Shown: in pieces, positions 37,120-55,117 of the stretch | Layout of the letters: the number at the start of each line of letters is the position of its first letter | Position numbering within the stretch: position 1 is the first letter of the stretch | From: a virus | Taxonomy: Duplodnaviria; Heunggongvirae; Uroviricota; Caudoviricetes | Strand: one strand, 5' to 3' | Length of the DNA stretch: 64,000 bases | IMG/VR virus record: IMGVR_UViG_2579778606_000002 | Span: 27,981-91,980 of that record | Notes under the pieces: model-generated | The model's input: the letters and a program-made list of their open reading frames with translations, nothing else | Databases searched by the model: none | Told to the model about the DNA's origin: nothing | Made by a program: the position numbers and the translations under genes

Positions 37120-37405
37120 CCCCCTTCCCTTCCCAAATCTCCCTATTCCTTTGGTTATTCAGTGCGTTTCGTTGGTTGCATTCATCGATAGTGCTGAATA
37201 ACTGTTCAGTGTATGCCGGATACTTGTTTAACAGCACAGGCGTGTCCTCTGGCACTATGCAAGGGGTATAATCAATCAGATTTCCCTGCGGTTTGCTGGT
37301 GGCTTCTACGGTAATTTGCATTGGCACGCTGATTGATTTCTTTTGCCCGTTCCCGCTGCATCCTGATAACGTCATCAGGCACACGCACATCATTAACCCC
37401 GGCAT
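37058..37405 (-). CDS. o-spanin (Rz1-like outer-membrane lipoprotein)
   Basis: MPGLMMCVCLMTLSGC signal peptide plus lipobox; gene starts inside i-spanin gene in another frame and runs past its stop. Confidence 0.6.
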   Translation of the reverse strand: MPGLMMCVCLMTLSGCSGNGQKKSISVPMQITVEATSKPQGNLIDYTPCIVPEDTPVLLNKYPAYTEQLFSTIDECNQRNALNNQRNREIWEGKGVKAPEARCPGCQLLRNRDRR

Positions 37406-37730
37406 TGCGTAACGCAGTTTCAAGACGATTGATTTCATTCTGGCTTTCCTCCCGTTGTTTGATCAGGCTGGTATTCAGTTCTGCTGTTTTGCGCTGGTAC
37501 TCCTTCTCCAGTGTTTTAATTCTTTCGTTTTCAGCCATCATGGCAGATCGCGATTTTTCACTTAACTGCAATGCGGTAGAAAGCGTGTTGTTCTCTCTTT
37601 CAAGTTGTGATTTTGAGTCTTCCAGGGAACGGATATACCTGATGTGATCGATAACTGCCGCCGTAGTACGGTAAATTCCATAAATGGCTAAAAGCGCAAC
37701 TACTATCAAAATTATCTTTTTCAAAACCAT
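37272..37730 (-). CDS. i-spanin (Rz-like: N-terminal TM plus periplasmic coiled coil)
   Basis: ATG at 37730 with GAAGAGG RBS; MVLKKIILIVVALLAIYGIY TM helix then coiled coil; overlapped by lipoprotein gene. Confidence 0.6.
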   Translation of the reverse strand: MVLKKIILIVVALLAIYGIYRTTAAVIDHIRYIRSLEDSKSQLERENNTLSTALQLSEKSRSAMMAENERIKTLEKEYQRKTAELNTSLIKQREESQNEINRLETALRNAGVNDVRVPDDVIRMQRERAKEINQRANANYRRSHQQTAGKSD

Positions 37731-37800
37731 CCTCTTCAGATTTTTTGTTGGTGTGATATGTGTACCAATTTGCAACCATTTATGGGCTTAAATGGTGTGG

Positions 37801-47710: not shown

Positions 47711-48250
47711 GTGAGTCAGGAAGTTGAAAAGTGGCGAGCATTTGAACACCCTGATGGTGTTATTCGTGATTTGTCATTTCTTGATGCTCATCAGGCTGTG
47801 TTTGTTCAGCAACAAGAAGGAAAGCAACCGATAGAGTATCGCTTTTGGGTTACGTACTCTTTTCACTGCTTCACAAAAGACTATGCACACCAGACTGAGG
47901 AAGAGAAACTGGCGTTAATGTACCACGCCCCTAAAGAGTCTCGTCCATTTTGTGAGCGTCGCTATAATCTTGCTAAACTTCACTTAAAAGAGGCAATTCT
48001 GTCATTGTCGGAAGGTAAGGTGATCCATGCCGGATACGGAAGCTATGCCGTTATTGAGGTAAATATTGGGGAGGGTAACAAGGAATATTATTTTGTTGCG
48101 TTTAAGGCTTTCAGGGAAAAGAAAAAGTTGCGGTTACACATCACTAGCGCCTACCCGGTATCAGAAAAACCAAATGGCAGGTCAGTGAAGTTTTTCGCAA
48201 TCGCATACAATCTGTTAAGGAACAAACCGCTTCCTAAGCCACCAAAATAA
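47711..48250 (+). CDS. Hypothetical protein; solitary opposite-strand gene (accessory candidate)
   Basis: 179-aa ORF with AAGGAG RBS (GTG start) inside a minus-strand structural block; followed by a GC hairpin. Confidence 0.5.
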   Translation: MSQEVEKWRAFEHPDGVIRDLSFLDAHQAVFVQQQEGKQPIEYRFWVTYSFHCFTKDYAHQTEEEKLALMYHAPKESRPFCERRYNLAKLHLKEAILSLSEGKVIHAGYGSYAVIEVNIGEGNKEYYFVAFKAFREKKKLRLHITSAYPVSEKPNGRSVKFFAIAYNLLRNKPLPKPPK

Positions 48251-48253
48251 CAA

Positions 48254-48273
48254 AGCCCACCTTAAGGTGGGCT
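48254..48273. terminator. Terminator-like hairpin (AGCCCACC-ttaa-GGTGGGCT)
   Basis: Perfect 8-bp stem 4 nt after the stop at 48250; U-rich flank stronger on the minus strand. Confidence 0.45.
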
Positions 48274-48475
48274 TCGCCAGAAATTATTTTCTGGTATTCA
48301 GAACGCCATTACCGGACTTTGCCTTGACCAAGTATCACAACTGGTTTGACCTGTTATGATAGCTGGTTGCGGGATGTCTGAATTTCTTCAGTCTGCTGCA
48401 TCCTCGAAGGTTTGGTTCAACATGTACCATTCCTTCACTGTCATAATAGTGTACTATTCATGTCCTTGCAAACAC

Positions 48476-50003: not shown

Positions 50004-50334
50004 AACAGTTCCTCACAGTCATAACCTGGGGGGAACTGTATGCAGGGTGTGAAATGCGAGAAACAGACAGTCCACCAGTTCAGGGGGATGTGGTTCATAA
50101 ATCCCCTCACTGGTGACAAGTGACTTTCATTAATCTTTATGCGGGGGCCAGCTTCATTGTTTGCTGGCTGTAGATTAAAAATTAAATAGTGTGAATGACA
50201 TGGACGTTATTCTCGAATTGTTAAAGCTAATTGTTCTGTTTATGAACGCCTCGTTGACCACGCAAATACTGGCGTTAGTATTTTTGTTACTCTTCTACCT
50301 GGTATTAAGGGAGTTAACTAAGCTACTGAGTTGA

Positions 50335-50988
50335 TTAAAGTATCACCGTATCTTCATCAATTACTTGCCCGGCCAGCGATTTTGGTTGGGTATTTCCTGC
50401 TTTAGCTTTTTGATCGCTGATAATGGACAGGAACGAGGCCATTATCCCTGCTTTGTTTTCTTTCTCTACCGCTCCTGTCATTTGTTTCAGGTAATCCGCG
50501 CTGGCAACATTGTGGTATACCGTTGCATAGCAGCACAGAATCATCAGGATGTGCTCTGGTCGGATATCTTGCCAGTTAACTCGATAAACCTCTTCACCGT
50601 TGCCGTTGTATTCGGTATCGACGATAGAGTCGGGGATCTCAAATGCCCCTTTGTTCTTGTCAGGCAGGGATAGCAGCCTTTGTAGTTTCAGCTCCCGGTA
50701 TCTCTCCATGCCGACAATGATCGCTGCTCTGCCGTCGGCGTGCCGTGTTTTTAATGTTACCTGGCTGGCACCTGTACCGGCTGAAATGGTTGGCGTGATT
50801 TCGTCAACCAGCACCTTAAATTCACTTTTACGCAGCTCGGCAATTGCTGGTGGAATTTTTCGTTTTTGTTCAATAGCAGATGCAGGGAGCGGCTTTACTT
50901 TGTCAATTACAAGCGCGCCGTCTTTCAGGACTGCCGTAGCCATCAGCGGCTTGTTAGTAGAAAGACTGAATATTGCGATCTTTTGCAT
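50335..50988 (-). CDS. Hypothetical protein
   Basis: 217-aa ORF with GGAG RBS immediately downstream of a strong hairpin. Confidence 0.45.
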   Translation of the reverse strand: MQKIAIFSLSTNKPLMATAVLKDGALVIDKVKPLPASAIEQKRKIPPAIAELRKSEFKVLVDEITPTISAGTGASQVTLKTRHADGRAAIIVGMERYRELKLQRLLSLPDKNKGAFEIPDSIVDTEYNGNGEEVYRVNWQDIRPEHILMILCCYATVYHNVASADYLKQMTGAVEKENKAGIMASFLSIISDQKAKAGNTQPKSLAGQVIDEDTVIL

Positions 50989-51013: not shown

Positions 51014-51039
51014 CAAAAAAAGGCCGCACATGGCGGCCT
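51014..51039 (-). terminator. Rho-independent terminator (A7 + GGCCGC..GCGGCC hairpin on plus = hairpin + U7 on minus)
   Basis: Seen directly; sits between the low-GC plus-strand cargo genes and the RBS of gene 50988. Confidence 0.5.
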
Positions 51040-51253: not shown

Positions 51254-51883
51254 ATGAAGGATGGTTTTGTGAAGTTAAGGGTTTTGGGAGCAGTGCTCGC
51301 GGTTATATTGGGGGGAGTTTCTCTTAATGCTGCCTATGCAGGCGCGTTACCTGCAAAGTATGAGGCTGGGCTGAAGGTGTTACGAAACGCCAAAACAAAC
51401 TATACGCCTGATGAAGTTTCAAACTATTGCCAGAAAGAAAATATCCCACTGAAGCCTGTAGAGCCATTCTTTAAAAGCAACATTGAGTTCTGTGTATTTG
51501 CGTATGCAGCAGATGAAACAGGAAAGGCCATACAAAAGACAGGGTATTCCACCAAAGACACAATGTCAGTGTTAAGTAACGGCGTGTTGCAGTTTGAGCT
51601 TTATCGTCAGCAAGGAATGGGAGATCTATTGCAGCCTTTGTATGTGCTGGCTTGGGTGCCTGAAGGGCAGCAGTTTCTTATCCGGAAAGGGATGCTTCGG
51701 CAAAGTGATGTGGCAGGATTCAATAACATGATGGAACTTGAACGATCCGCGAAGCAAAAACCAGCACCTAAGCAACCTACAGCGGAATGCATTGGTAGTG
51801 AGATCCAAAAGATATTAAGTGAGCAGCCTTACATTGATCGTGGGGTAGCCGAAGTCGCTGCAAAAATGAAATGTACTAATTAA
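51254..51883 (+). CDS. Secreted/periplasmic hypothetical protein (signal peptide)
   Basis: MKDGFVKLRVLGAVLAVILGGVSLNAAYA signal peptide; several Cys; low-GC gene. Confidence 0.5.
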   Translation: MKDGFVKLRVLGAVLAVILGGVSLNAAYAGALPAKYEAGLKVLRNAKTNYTPDEVSNYCQKENIPLKPVEPFFKSNIEFCVFAYAADETGKAIQKTGYSTKDTMSVLSNGVLQFELYRQQGMGDLLQPLYVLAWVPEGQQFLIRKGMLRQSDVAGFNNMMELERSAKQKPAPKQPTAECIGSEIQKILSEQPYIDRGVAEVAAKMKCTN

Positions 51884-51926
51884 AGTCAAATAGAATAACA
51901 AAATGGTAAAGTCTGGAGTTTGTGAA

Positions 51927-52748
51927 ATGTTTTTAAAGAAATGCGGAAACATATTTTGTTCAACAGCGTTTACTGCTGTTATTGCTCTTTCGGTTCCCAG
52001 CATATCTTTTGCTGAAGATTTTAGCAAAATTGACTGTAACGCCACAAAAACAAGGCAGATGTTGATCGATGATTATAACGAACTTTTAAAAGATGAACCG
52101 GAAAAAGTAACAGTAATTGATGCTTACGATCAGATTAATGAAATAAGCGAAAAAAATAAACTCCAATGCCTAGGAACGTATGAGTTCTCTGATGGAAGCA
52201 CGCTTAGAGTTAGGTATAATTTATACCTAAACAGCCTAGGTACACCTATATATAAATTTGTCCCAGTTGAGGATTTAACGCAATATGACGTAAGCGCATC
52301 TATTCATAATGCTCCTGCAACCATTACGAGTGCGCCTGAAAATAATGGAGAAACATACGCCTGTAAGGTCGCTGTAACCTACAATGGAAAACGCTCAAAC
52401 TACATGGGGGATTCTGGTACATGGGACCGTGTGATTACTGATTATGGATCTTACTTCTCATGGGATTTGCCACGCGGAAACAGAGGTAACAGCACTGGGC
52501 AGGATGCTTTTAGTGGTATAGACGTATCAAAGCCTGTATTAGAAAATCAGTTGGTGAGAAAGGAAGTCGAAAAAGATGGTAGTGTGGTTGATGAGTTTAG
52601 GACTGAAGTAAGCTATGGTGAGAGACAATCAGCACATAAGTTTGTATATGCCCGTAGAATAAAACCTACAGGGACGAGAGAATATTATGTCACAGATCTG
52701 ACTGATAAACGGGCATTTATGTTTCTGAATTGTCAGCAAGATTCGTAG
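51927..52748 (+). CDS. Secreted hypothetical protein (signal peptide)
   Basis: MFLKKCGNIFCSTAFTAVIALSVPSISFA signal peptide; AT-rich coding region. Confidence 0.5.
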   Translation: MFLKKCGNIFCSTAFTAVIALSVPSISFAEDFSKIDCNATKTRQMLIDDYNELLKDEPEKVTVIDAYDQINEISEKNKLQCLGTYEFSDGSTLRVRYNLYLNSLGTPIYKFVPVEDLTQYDVSASIHNAPATITSAPENNGETYACKVAVTYNGKRSNYMGDSGTWDRVITDYGSYFSWDLPRGNRGNSTGQDAFSGIDVSKPVLENQLVRKEVEKDGSVVDEFRTEVSYGERQSAHKFVYARRIKPTGTREYYVTDLTDKRAFMFLNCQQDS

Positions 52749-52787
52749 TTGATATAGCAGGCTTAAAGATTAAGCCTGCTATTTGTT

Positions 52788-53144
52788 TTACTCGGTAATT
52801 GTTTTGCAGTTGTTTTTATTTAAGGCCAACCCAAGTTTACTTGAGGCTAACTCATTTTCTGTGTGAGTGCCAGCAAATACAAAGCCTTGTTTTATCTTGT
52901 TTATGGTGAAATATTTGTTGTACATGAAAGCCCAAATAAAAGAGGCGATCCAGGGGCCAATTCCGGCAGTGAGGAATGCCAGTATCAGCATCACCAAGAA
53001 CACCCCAATGAAGGTTATAAAGTCTTTCCTGAACAAAGCAGGAAAAGCACCAAACAAGAATGTAGTCCAAGAAAAACCATAAAAACCGGTTATTGACTCG
53101 CCAGTTTGAGGATTTTCAAGTTTAATTTTAGTAGCCAAAACCAT
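52788..53144 (-). CDS. Small inner-membrane protein (two predicted TM helices)
   Basis: 118-aa ORF with hydrophobic helices FLFGAFPALF / FIGVFLVMLILAFLTAGIGPWIASFIWAF. Confidence 0.45.
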   Translation of the reverse strand: MVLATKIKLENPQTGESITGFYGFSWTTFLFGAFPALFRKDFITFIGVFLVMLILAFLTAGIGPWIASFIWAFMYNKYFTINKIKQGFVFAGTHTENELASSKLGLALNKNNCKTITE

Positions 53145-53269
53145 TCATCCTTTAACATAAAAAACAAATACTTATAAAGCTGTGTGAGTCTGCAATACTA
53201 CTAATTTACACTTTGTAATGCAATGAGTTGATGTATGTCTTGTGACGCTGTTATTCATATCTGTAGGAG

Positions 53270-53608
53270 TTAAGATTTTTCGGTAATGGTGATTTCATCT
53301 CCTAGCCGATAGCGGCGGGGAACGGAACTCTCCATCAGGTCACGAATTGCTCCCGCCTCACGCAGTTCCTCTGTCTCCCAGTATCTGTTTGTCACCAGGT
53401 CAAGGCTGGCAATGACTTTATGCCGGTCATTCGGCATTGCTTCTTTTTCAGCCATTATCATCAGTGAGAACTCTTCATCCAGTAGAATTTGATACCAGAC
53501 TTTTGACAGTTCCAACTCTCTAATGAGGGTGAAGCGCCGCTCAATTGTGGCAGCAGAATAAGTGAAATCTATTTTTTTGGTGGCATACATTTTGCTGTGT
53601 CCGGTCAC
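53270..53608 (-). CDS. Hypothetical cytoplasmic protein downstream of Rha copy 2
   Basis: 112-aa ORF starting right after the post-Rha hairpin; true start possibly at MYATKK. Confidence 0.4.
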   Translation of the reverse strand: MTGHSKMYATKKIDFTYSAATIERRFTLIRELELSKVWYQILLDEEFSLMIMAEKEAMPNDRHKVIASLDLVTNRYWETEELREAGAIRDLMESSVPRRYRLGDEITITEKS

Positions 53609-53620
53609 TTAGTAGTTAAA

Positions 53621-53639
53621 GCCCCGGCATGACCGGGGC
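53621..53639. other. Conserved GC hairpin after Rha gene (GCCCCGG-catga-CCGGGGC)
   Basis: Same stem as hairpin 825-843 after Rha copy 1, but without a clear U-tract here. Confidence 0.4.
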
Positions 53640-53647
53640 AAAAGCTA

Positions 53648-54589
53648 TTAACTAACAATCCAGTCGGTTGCTGCTATATCTTCTGGCTGCAAATCAATCG
53701 CACAGATCTTACCGTCGCGAATGGTGCGCCAGTTTTTCCGTGAGCCTCTTTCGGGCCATACCCAGACACTTTCAGGCCAGGATGCTCGACGGCATACGGT
53801 TGCATACCCTGTTTTAATCTTCTCTCTGGCGGTATGCAACGACAGGTTTGCCTTTGGGCTATCAGGCACAGGGTGGTGAATGGCCTGAAACAGCCCCATC
53901 CTGGGGTGATACCAGCGTTTGTTGCGTGGTTCTGCCTCCGACATCACCTGCTTAAAGGCTTTCCGGAAGGGGGCCAGGGCCACAATTGAGCGTCGCGCAA
54001 GCAAACCGTCGGGAGTCAAAAACTCATGCGTATCAGTGGGTATCCGGTAAGCGTTAACCAGGTTGCGACATTTGGCTTCAGTCAGGCCACATTTCGCCGC
54101 CAGCTGGCGGTAGCCAATGTAGCCTTCCGGAATATTGCCTTTCTTTATTTGCTCGAGTGTTTCAGCGACCATCGATACTTGTGCTGATACCTCGGCTACC
54201 TGGGCATTTACGGCGTTGATCCGGCGTTCATGCTCAAGATGCATTTGCGCCATTTCAGCCAGGATTTCGGCTTTTGATTTTAACTGTACCCGGGCATTCT
54301 CCAGTTCGCGCCAGCGGTCCACCAGCCGGGCGGTGAATTCCGGAGAGAGCTGCGCGACGACAATGATGCTGTCTCGTTTTCCTTGTTCGCCTTCAAATAT
54401 GTAAGCCTTGGAAAATCGACGAGGGCCAACTGATTGTTTATTTTCAATTTCCACAGATTGTGGAAATTGGATCACACTCTTTTTAGCCAGTGTTTCGATA
54501 GTTCTCTTCACACTATCTTGGCGACTTCCTACCAGTTCCGCGATCTCAATGCTGGTCATTGTCGCTTTTTGAGAGATGGACAGATTCAT
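53648..54589 (-). CDS. Rha-family phage regulatory protein (antirepressor-like), intact paralog
   Basis: 313-aa ORF; N-terminal Phage_pRha-type segment nearly identical to copy 1. Confidence 0.7.
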   Translation of the reverse strand: MNLSISQKATMTSIEIAELVGSRQDSVKRTIETLAKKSVIQFPQSVEIENKQSVGPRRFSKAYIFEGEQGKRDSIIVVAQLSPEFTARLVDRWRELENARVQLKSKAEILAEMAQMHLEHERRINAVNAQVAEVSAQVSMVAETLEQIKKGNIPEGYIGYRQLAAKCGLTEAKCRNLVNAYRIPTDTHEFLTPDGLLARRSIVALAPFRKAFKQVMSEAEPRNKRWYHPRMGLFQAIHHPVPDSPKANLSLHTAREKIKTGYATVCRRASWPESVWVWPERGSRKNWRTIRDGKICAIDLQPEDIAATDWIVS

Positions 54590-54804
54590 CAGTGCACCTC
54601 CACGCAGTTCATTGGCAGATTCCAGTAATTGAGGATCTCCATCGCATCAAGAGTGAAGCGTGCGGCAAAAATGCAGGGTTCTTCAGGAAGGTATGAACGA
54701 GCTTCTGCTTCGGTTGCAGCCATGACGCAGATATACAGGTGTTTTTGGCAGGAATAGAAACGCCAGATAAATTCAGAATGAGTTGGGGTAGGGATAGTAG
54801 CCAT
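54589..54804 (-). CDS. icd: Icd-like small protein, copy 2
   Basis: 71-aa ORF with GGAGG RBS; 1-nt stop/start overlap with Rha gene; EFIWRF and EAEARS motifs shared with copy 1. Confidence 0.45.
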   Translation of the reverse strand: MATIPTPTHSEFIWRFYSCQKHLYICVMAATEAEARSYLPEEPCIFAARFTLDAMEILNYWNLPMNCVEVH

Positions 54805-54839
54805 ATTGGCAGCCTCCTTTTGCTAATTTAAGGAGCTAC

Positions 54840-55050
54840 CGCGTGAGGTTCCAATCTCAATGGCGGTAGCACTGACTGGGTTGGAACTACCGGCGCAAAA
54901 GGGAACCGGCCTGCCTTTCGGCAGCCCAGCCAGCACTACCATTGATCTCTGAGCTAAACGCTACGTATGGCTGTGCGATGGCATGACACAAGAAAAGACG
55001 CTTTCGGCGTCTGTGTCGCCTTTTGCATTATCCGGGGTTCCAATCCCGGC
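54840..55050 (-). ncRNA. Candidate c4-like antisense RNA / control region of icd-rha copy 2
   Basis: Direct boxes GGTTCCAATC at 54847 and 55036 with inverted copy GGTTGGAAC at 54879, about 45 nt upstream of icd start. Confidence 0.25.
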
Positions 55051-55117
55051 ACCCGTTTTTCTAAGGTGCCGTAGAAATATACCCCACGATAATGCCAGGG
55101 CGCAACTGTGTGTTTTC

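Follow-up and report, generated by a model that had tools for sequence, protein, structure and literature searches.

The stretch of DNA analysed here (hereafter the window) comprises 64,000 nucleotides of a caudoviricete genome, positions 27,981 to 91,980 of the IMG/VR record IMGVR_UViG_2579778606_000002, and our subject is a short locus within it, bounded by the gene mat on one side and by the second of two c4–icd–antirepressor (ant) modules on the other, with tail and baseplate genes also adjoining. Four open reading frames (ORFs) fill this slot at the positions that an earlier reading of the letters without database searches (the sequence-only reading) had given: two on the plus strand, here called P1p and P2, and two on the minus strand, P3 and P4 (Table 1). 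Most likely, the region is an accessory, recombinationally exchangeable slot for envelope proteins. Across 16 kb around the locus the identity to D6-like plasmids is 96–98%, and the window is therefore assigned, by these flank matches, to the D6-like, P1-related phage-plasmids; the segment 50900–53700 itself matches phage D6 (NC_050154) and about 118 plasmids of E. coli, Salmonella and Shigella at merely ~83% identity. Two C4 antisense RNAs identified with Rfam, both on the minus strand (54859–54946 and 2028–2113), confirm that the window holds two c4–icd–antirepressor modules, and homologues of P4 or P3 do not follow copy 1, just as the sequence-only reading had claimed.

Table 1. Coordinates and properties of features at the slot between mat and the copy-2 module
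Feature	Position	Strand	Description
mat	50335-50988		far boundary of the slot, opposite the copy-2 module
GC-rich hairpin with T7 run	51021..51039	-	just upstream of the mat start; intrinsic-terminator-like
P1p	51254..51883	+	predicted exported all-alpha orphan, 209 aa; four invariant Cys (59, 80, 179, 207)
P2	51903..52748	+	predicted exported two-domain protein, 281 aa; leader up to aa 37 (nt 52013)
P2, SimB-like domain	52017-52274	+	aa 39-124, followed by a linker
P2, C-domain	52335-52745	+	aa ~145-281; conserved beta-barrel (model)
Exchangeable low-GC cassette P2+P3	51930..53287		homology to L006 (98% identical flanks) ends at 51929 and resumes at 53288 (pairwise BLASTN)
Perfect 13-bp hairpin	52754..52782		separates the convergent P2 and P3 stop codons; T-tract on + only; z -3.7 (+), -4.4 (-)
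P3	52788..53144	-	small inner-membrane protein (predicted), 118 aa, 2-3 spans; phrog_4915
P4	53270..53608	-	PmgF homologue; 112 aa (GTG start) or 106 aa (start at ATG 53590); cytoplasmic (predicted)
8-bp GC hairpin	53621..53639	-	directly after the antirepressor stop, followed by UUU only; z -3.15
immI-type module, copy 2	53648..54946	-	C4 RNA 54859-54946 (Rfam C4, 76.7 bits); icd 54589-54804; Rha-type antirepressor 53648-54589 (phrog_63, Phage_pRha)

The exchangeability of the locus is seen directly in a comparison of 35 related loci, namely 31 viral-contig loci retrieved via Mat, D6 and three plasmids, with all parts mapped, across which the mat–ant slot is mosaic. In its commonest form a P1p-like gene is followed by a gene for a 130-aa leader protein and then by P4. 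The full set of P1p, P2 and P3 with P4 is found in the window and in one contig at 98–99% identity (L009), and the same set without P4 in two more (L002, L017); in the D6 type P1p is deleted and P2, P3 and usually P4 are present; and in a last form another N-domain is fused to the P2 C-domain, with P3 in L010 and without it in L021 and L030. Whatever the form, the slot begins with at least one leader-bearing protein, be it the 130-aa protein, P2, or the P2 C-domain with its other N-domain. Positions 51929 and 53288, where homology to L006 ends and resumes, define P2 plus P3 as the exchangeable unit, coincident with a trough in GC content. These breakpoints are embedded in flanks 96–98% identical, and in siblings whose flanks are 98% identical the place of the cassette is taken by another signal-peptide protein. 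Against L004, homology ends at 51724, within the allelic C-terminal tail of P1p, and D6 lacks 51305–51900, a 596-bp deletion by which P1p is lost and its first ~17 codons are fused to the P2 leader. Comparison with relatives, which had been proposed as a check, thus bears out the view of accessory, variable cargo; the single "island" of the sequence-only reading does not survive it, since P2 and P3 form a cassette, P1p is separately deletable and P4 is backbone. The limits of the P2+P3 cassette and its alternatives are newly delimited here. The kind of locus and its variability were already known, D6-like prophages having been described as carrying a homologue of simB in the absence of simA and simC and as diverging "in the vicinity of the simB gene" (PMC6799933); as the D6 gene had also been annotated simB-like, the advance is incremental.

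Base composition adds to this picture. At 0.409, compared with 0.471 for the window as a whole, the GC content of 51254–53608 ranks lowest for its length, a value as low being reached in just 0.9% of equal-length sliding stretches, whose minimum falls in the same neighbourhood; the three 1400-nt stretches of lowest GC start at 51801–51901. The stretch that the sequence-only reading had perceived as AT-rich is therefore real, and it is uneven: P2 (0.389; 0.323 at third codon positions) and P3 (0.387) alone produce the dip, and P1p (0.448) and P4 (0.463) differ little from the backbone.

The gene that links the slot to a known system is P2. Its residues 39–124 align over the full mature length of the phage P1 "superimmunity" protein SimB (SimB residues 28–111; 47% identity over 86 aa, BLASTP E 2e-23), tblastn with P2 likewise matches P1 simB records, and phmmer recovers stand-alone SimB-like proteins. 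Two cysteines (C45 and C89, counting from ATG 51903) are kept in nearly all aligned SimB-like sequences, and with homology, leader and cysteine pair all present the N-domain is assigned to the P1 SimB family. The C-domain, of ~135 residues, contains the nearly invariant blocks YFSWDLPRGNRGNSTGQD, HKFVYARRIKP and FLNC, and there is one conserved cysteine pair in each domain. In the AlphaFold2 (AF2) model both domains exceed 90 in predicted local distance difference test score (pLDDT), residues 1–34 being disordered; the first domain folds as one helix on a four-stranded sheet (cystatin-like) and the second as a barrel of ~10 strands, from which GNRG(N/D)STG, invariant across the aligned C-domain homologues, protrudes as an exposed loop. 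A conserved exposed loop on a modelled barrel suggests target binding, and the fold classes resemble those of other periplasmic proteins, the PliC/MliC/PhiA lysozyme inhibitors (small beta-barrel) and the cystatin-type inhibitors (helix on sheet). This two-domain anatomy is newly described here. The two domains are also found apart, the first as stand-alone SimB-like proteins of 100–120 aa and the second alone or behind other N-terminal regions. Relatives of P2 are few: just 29 in an exhaustive phmmer search of 1.84 billion representatives, and 11 clusters among 5.8e9 proteins, confined to D6-like elements. Two matches were set aside, a single one in a PDB profile search with the P2 family (E 0.19) and a phmmer match to a 1011-aa protein with repeats (P0042) that was judged a low-complexity artefact. 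The idea of P2 as an inhibitor of a Sit-type injection transglycosylase found no support, the large tail ORFs scanned containing no SLT domain.

The gene neighbourhoods of the stand-alone SimB-like and C-domain genes show no conserved partner; one SimB-like gene adjoins a RepL-like gene. On small Rop-type plasmid contigs (L056 1098–1912, L057 386–1200), a SimB-like gene (104 aa) converges on the gene for a 106-aa membrane protein that has a weak match to Imm_superinfect (T4 Imm) and a SHOCT domain. This pairing of a SimB-like with an Imm-family protein would parallel the layout of P2 and P3, a parallel that is supportive but isolated.

Export of P1p and P2 is predicted by several lines of evidence. 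A crude n/h/c-region and −3/−1 rule, applied to the 67 non-overlapping ORFs of at least 100 aa, flags four: P1p, P2, an internal span of P3, and the minus-strand ORF 37272–37775, the sole other long ORF of the window with a leader-like N-terminus (MVLKKIILIVVALLA...) and one without a Pfam match. The same rule places cleavage of P1p between MKLRVLGAVLAVILGGVSLNAAYA and G, after AYA (aa 29, nt 51340), and that of P2 between MFLKKCGNIFCSTAFTAVIALSVPSISFA and ED. Both genes probably start slightly downstream of the annotated positions, P1p at GTG 51269 (MKLRVLG...), preceded by a Shine–Dalgarno-like AAGGA, and P2 at ATG 51927 (MFLKKCG...), with a Shine–Dalgarno-like GGAG ahead; PHROG and homologue alignments start at these revised points. 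The leaders are retained in all homologues, and AF2 models P1p as disordered over residues 1–32 and ordered thereafter. The signal peptides that the sequence-only reading had recognised thus find agreement in the heuristic, in the homologues and in disorder to residues 32–34. Because conserved cysteines, leaders and the boundary of predicted order together fit periplasmic, disulfide-bonded proteins, we infer, as a strong inference, that P1p and P2 are of this kind. Sequence comparison finds no similarity between the two, and kinship of P1p with P2 was rejected. With relatives in only 7 clusters among the 5.8e9 proteins, again confined to D6-like elements, P1p is newly recognised here as an independent, separately deletable orphan, predicted to be exported. 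Neither plus-strand product bears a phage-structural signature, in keeping with the sequence-only reading, and in PHROGs all four proteins fall solely into families of "unknown function."

The membrane protein of the slot is P3, whose single hydrophobic block (aa 36–73, enough for its 2–3 spans) upholds the call made from the letters. Its family is large, with at least 154 clusters in alpha-, beta- and gamma-proteobacteria and a mean column identity of 62%, and resists classification: no Pfam model is reached by P3 at E values up to 1. Some UniRef names label its homologues DUF2628, and PF10947 is matched by three of 30 family members at E 0.22 and by P3 itself not at all; as to Imm_superinfect (PF14373), P3 has no Pfam match to it, and an hhalign comparison with the Imm-like L056 protein yields a probability of 11%. 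Among the neighbourhoods examined, no conserved gene partner of the P3 homologues was seen. One homologue lies immediately after a VgrG–DUF4123–effector–PAAR cluster of a type VI secretion system (T6SS) in Citrobacter koseri (L040 1–4360), and others, from an abundant metagenomic lineage (L043–L046 594–4327), follow a lanthipeptide synthetase of the LanM type; both settings look incidental.

In D6-like loci P3 is present solely alongside the P2 C-domain, and the two genes are convergent with one hairpin in common. This strict tie raises the thought of a toxin–immunity or addiction pair in which an exported barrel would harm cells that lose P3, and the T6SS neighbourhood, seen once, and the LanM neighbourhood, seen repeatedly, are places in which immunity proteins occur. 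We nevertheless regard such a pair as highly unlikely: P2 C-domain genes occur without P3 (L021, L030), most P3 homologues are singletons with no P2-like partner, structure comparison and the PDB profile search revealed no toxin-like fold or motif, and Sec export to the producer's own periplasm would be unusual for such a pair.

P4 is of another nature. It shares 41% identity over 78 aa with PmgF of phage P1 (E 4e-14), which places it in the PmgF family, matches phrog_7349 (E 2e-52), and has no hydrophobic span. It accompanies ant whatever fills the slot, and because it is retained beside ant in relatives from which P2 and P3 are absent we assign it to the backbone, outside the exported module and not as cargo, a status newly recognised here. 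Of the description in the sequence-only reading, the small cytoplasmic protein stands and its membership of a cargo island falls.

Three hairpins bear on transcription. The perfect hairpin between P2 and P3 looks like a terminator for P1p–P2, the strong terminator-like site at the mat end would halt minus-strand read-through ahead of mat, and the hairpin after the antirepressor stop might weakly terminate or attenuate transcription on its way from ant to P4. Both minus-strand genes had been proposed to be co-transcribed with ant; since the distribution of P3 is linked to that of P2 and a GC-rich hairpin separates ant from P4, such co-transcription would depend on read-through from ant into P4 and P3, which is possible.

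Placement beside mat, which is concerned with maturation control, and beside tail and baseplate genes, together with a downstream neighbour homologous to PmgF (annotated "putative morphogenetic function") and the lack of a recognised lysogen-type promoter, might point to an accessory of the lytic cycle, expressed lytically and serving lysis timing, a guard for infected cells against lysis-from-without by progeny, or the passage of tail or DNA through the periplasm. That role seems improbable to us, as the content of the slot is replaced or deleted in near-identical elements, D6 is a viable phage without P1p, and none of the four proteins resembles a holin, spanin or endolysin in Pfam or PHROGs. 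In phage P1, moreover, simABC and pmgF score as non-essential, the sim genes being dispensable for lytic growth (PMC10695390).

Superinfection exclusion of the sim type is the best reading of function that we can offer for the slot, and one that we hold tentatively. It is favoured because of the SimB homology, the predicted export, the link to the immunity region, the non-essential P1 counterparts and a swapping of cassettes of the kind expected from an arms race. As in phage P1, the genes are accessory, belong to a P1-type plasmid prophage and adjoin c4–icd–ant; SimA, SimB and SimC each have an N-terminal leader, as do P1p and P2; and P1 simABC is likewise GC-poor (0.336 against 0.442 for its locus). 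No molecular explanation of the P1 sim system is known to us; its exclusion has been described as acting between adsorption and DNA entry. The closest relatives of the slot are D6 orf79, orf80 and orf81 and their counterparts in D6-like plasmid prophages (e.g., pYU39_89), which are direct orthologues of P2, P3 and P4 (80%, 92% and 80% identical to the D6 proteins, respectively) in the same order and orientation, orf79 being annotated in its record as "similar to P1 simB." In contrast to the window, D6 lacks P1p, and the window alleles are 80–92% identical to those of D6 though the backbone is 96–99% identical to other plasmids. A functional analogy, and only that, may be drawn with Sp (periplasmic) and Imm (inner membrane) of phage T4, a superinfection exclusion pair that blocks entry and likewise combines a soluble exported protein with a small membrane protein; the window proteins have no sequence relationship to either.

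The slot also differs from P1 sim. The window genes are found at the far, 3′ end of the immI operon, convergent on it and divergent from mat; their SimB domain is fused to a beta-barrel absent from P1; and an all-alpha protein, predicted to be exported, and a membrane protein are added. With simC and simA missing and both position and orientation different, the locus does not belong to P1 sim at the level of the operon. Neither BLASTP nor hhalign upheld the idea that P1p or the P2 C-domain is related to SimC, and it was rejected. The simB gene of P1 overlaps the beginning of simC, and here the SimB domain forms a fusion with a second, unrelated domain, which suggests, as an inference only, that the SimB-type module may work with a variable partner domain.

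Several observations weigh against sim-like exclusion. BLASTP and hhalign detect no SimC or SimA homologue in the window, and it is simC that the P1 record credits with the Sim phenotype, SimB being a "putative accessory." P1's own sim genes are divergent from the c4 promoter, whereas those of the window are far from the immI promoter; a scan upstream of P1p revealed no sigma-70 consensus promoter, and the P1-type C1 operator (ATTGCTCTAATAAATTT, with up to three mismatches) has no match. Against Pfam, NCBIfam and PADLOC the four proteins gave nothing meaningful, the sole PADLOC match to a known anti-phage defence protein being a spurious one to TnsB (E 0.01), and structure comparison of the AF2 models yielded fold matches for the P2 domains that are weak and generic. 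C-domain alleles exist without P3, as described above. Finally, stand-alone SimB-like genes also occur as chromosomal singletons in ordinary neighbourhoods without a phage link, and most P3 homologues outside D6-like loci are singletons in unrelated chromosomal neighbourhoods, again with no phage link; the two families are hence not specific to exclusion.

This last pair of observations suggests a cellular role and speaks for a host-serving lysogenic conversion with no relation to phage exclusion, in which the exported and membrane proteins would alter envelope physiology to the benefit of carriers, for example by inhibiting a periplasmic hydrolase or protease, by accommodating a small ligand inside the barrel, or by raising tolerance to stress or bacteriocins. 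The extreme conservation of P3 across proteobacterial classes is compatible with this, and low GC and a moron-like placement between terminators fit acquired cargo. The confinement of P1p and P2 to D6-like elements better fits a role of phage against phage, and none of the four proteins matches a virulence or resistance family in Pfam or NCBIfam; we therefore consider conversion possible and rather unlikely.

Should sim-like exclusion be correct, it might operate as follows. The plus-strand unit, P1p and then P2, would end at the hairpin beyond P2 and send two proteins to the periplasm via Sec-type leaders, where they would probably be disulfide-stabilised, and the convergent P3 gene would put a small protein into the inner membrane. 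Expressed from the resident plasmid prophage, they would meet an incoming related phage in the periplasm or inner membrane, between adsorption and DNA entry, with the loop of the P2 barrel binding a conserved component of the phage or of the host envelope. The swapping of alleles and cassettes would then be the outcome of an arms race between D6-like elements that circulate together. A bolder proposal, to which we assign little probability, is that P2 and P3 constitute an undescribed two-part entry barrier: the SimB domain would serve as scaffold or for targeting, a swappable second domain would capture an ejection component, and P3 would cooperate. Jointly with it, and at the same low probability, that second domain would be the GNRG(N/D)STG barrel here and the separate SimC in P1.

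Further variation and cargo surround the locus. A second variable slot is adjacent: a toxin–antitoxin pair, HigB/HigA (RelE/ParE-type), separates mat from a gene-26-like baseplate gene in close relatives (L002 3516–4087, L004 6098–6669) and is lacking from the window, where homology breaks at 50063 and resumes at 50116–50335. In another D6-like contig (L013 2600–4604) the mat–ant slot is ~2.4 kb larger: between its PmgF-like gene and what is left of the 130-aa leader protein, a truncated piece of 61 aa, lie three additional ORFs of 101, 361 and 209 aa. Directly upstream of the copy-2 C4 RNA lies a match to isrK, an Hfq-binding small RNA (Rfam, 59 bits, 54991–55069, minus strand). Copy 1 of the module (852–2234) comprises the C4 RNA 2028–2113, c4–a1b1 targets at 2182–2234, an icd-like gene (1756–1980) and a shortened Rha-type antirepressor (1049–1756, 235 aa), whose C-terminal part runs on in another frame (852–1064), which suggests a frameshifted or decayed copy; a plus-strand CHAP-domain gene (329–820) comes after it. 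Among the tail genes, a full-length match to sroH (Rfam, 113 bits, 48252–48437, minus strand) abuts the plus-strand ORF 47711–48250 (179 aa), annotated in relatives as a "stationary phase growth adaptation protein," another small cargo insertion.

The two-part barrier, if true, would give a first functional handle on the P3 family and on the chromosomal SimB-like proteins. A natural fusion of SimB to a barrel, in a slot that elsewhere holds alternative exported proteins, provides a defined set of alleles with which to approach specificity. Superinfection exclusion by plasmid prophages affects which phage-plasmids co-exist, and as several elements of the D6/P1 type bear resistance genes, exclusion of the kind proposed here would thus affect their spread in E. 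coli and Salmonella.

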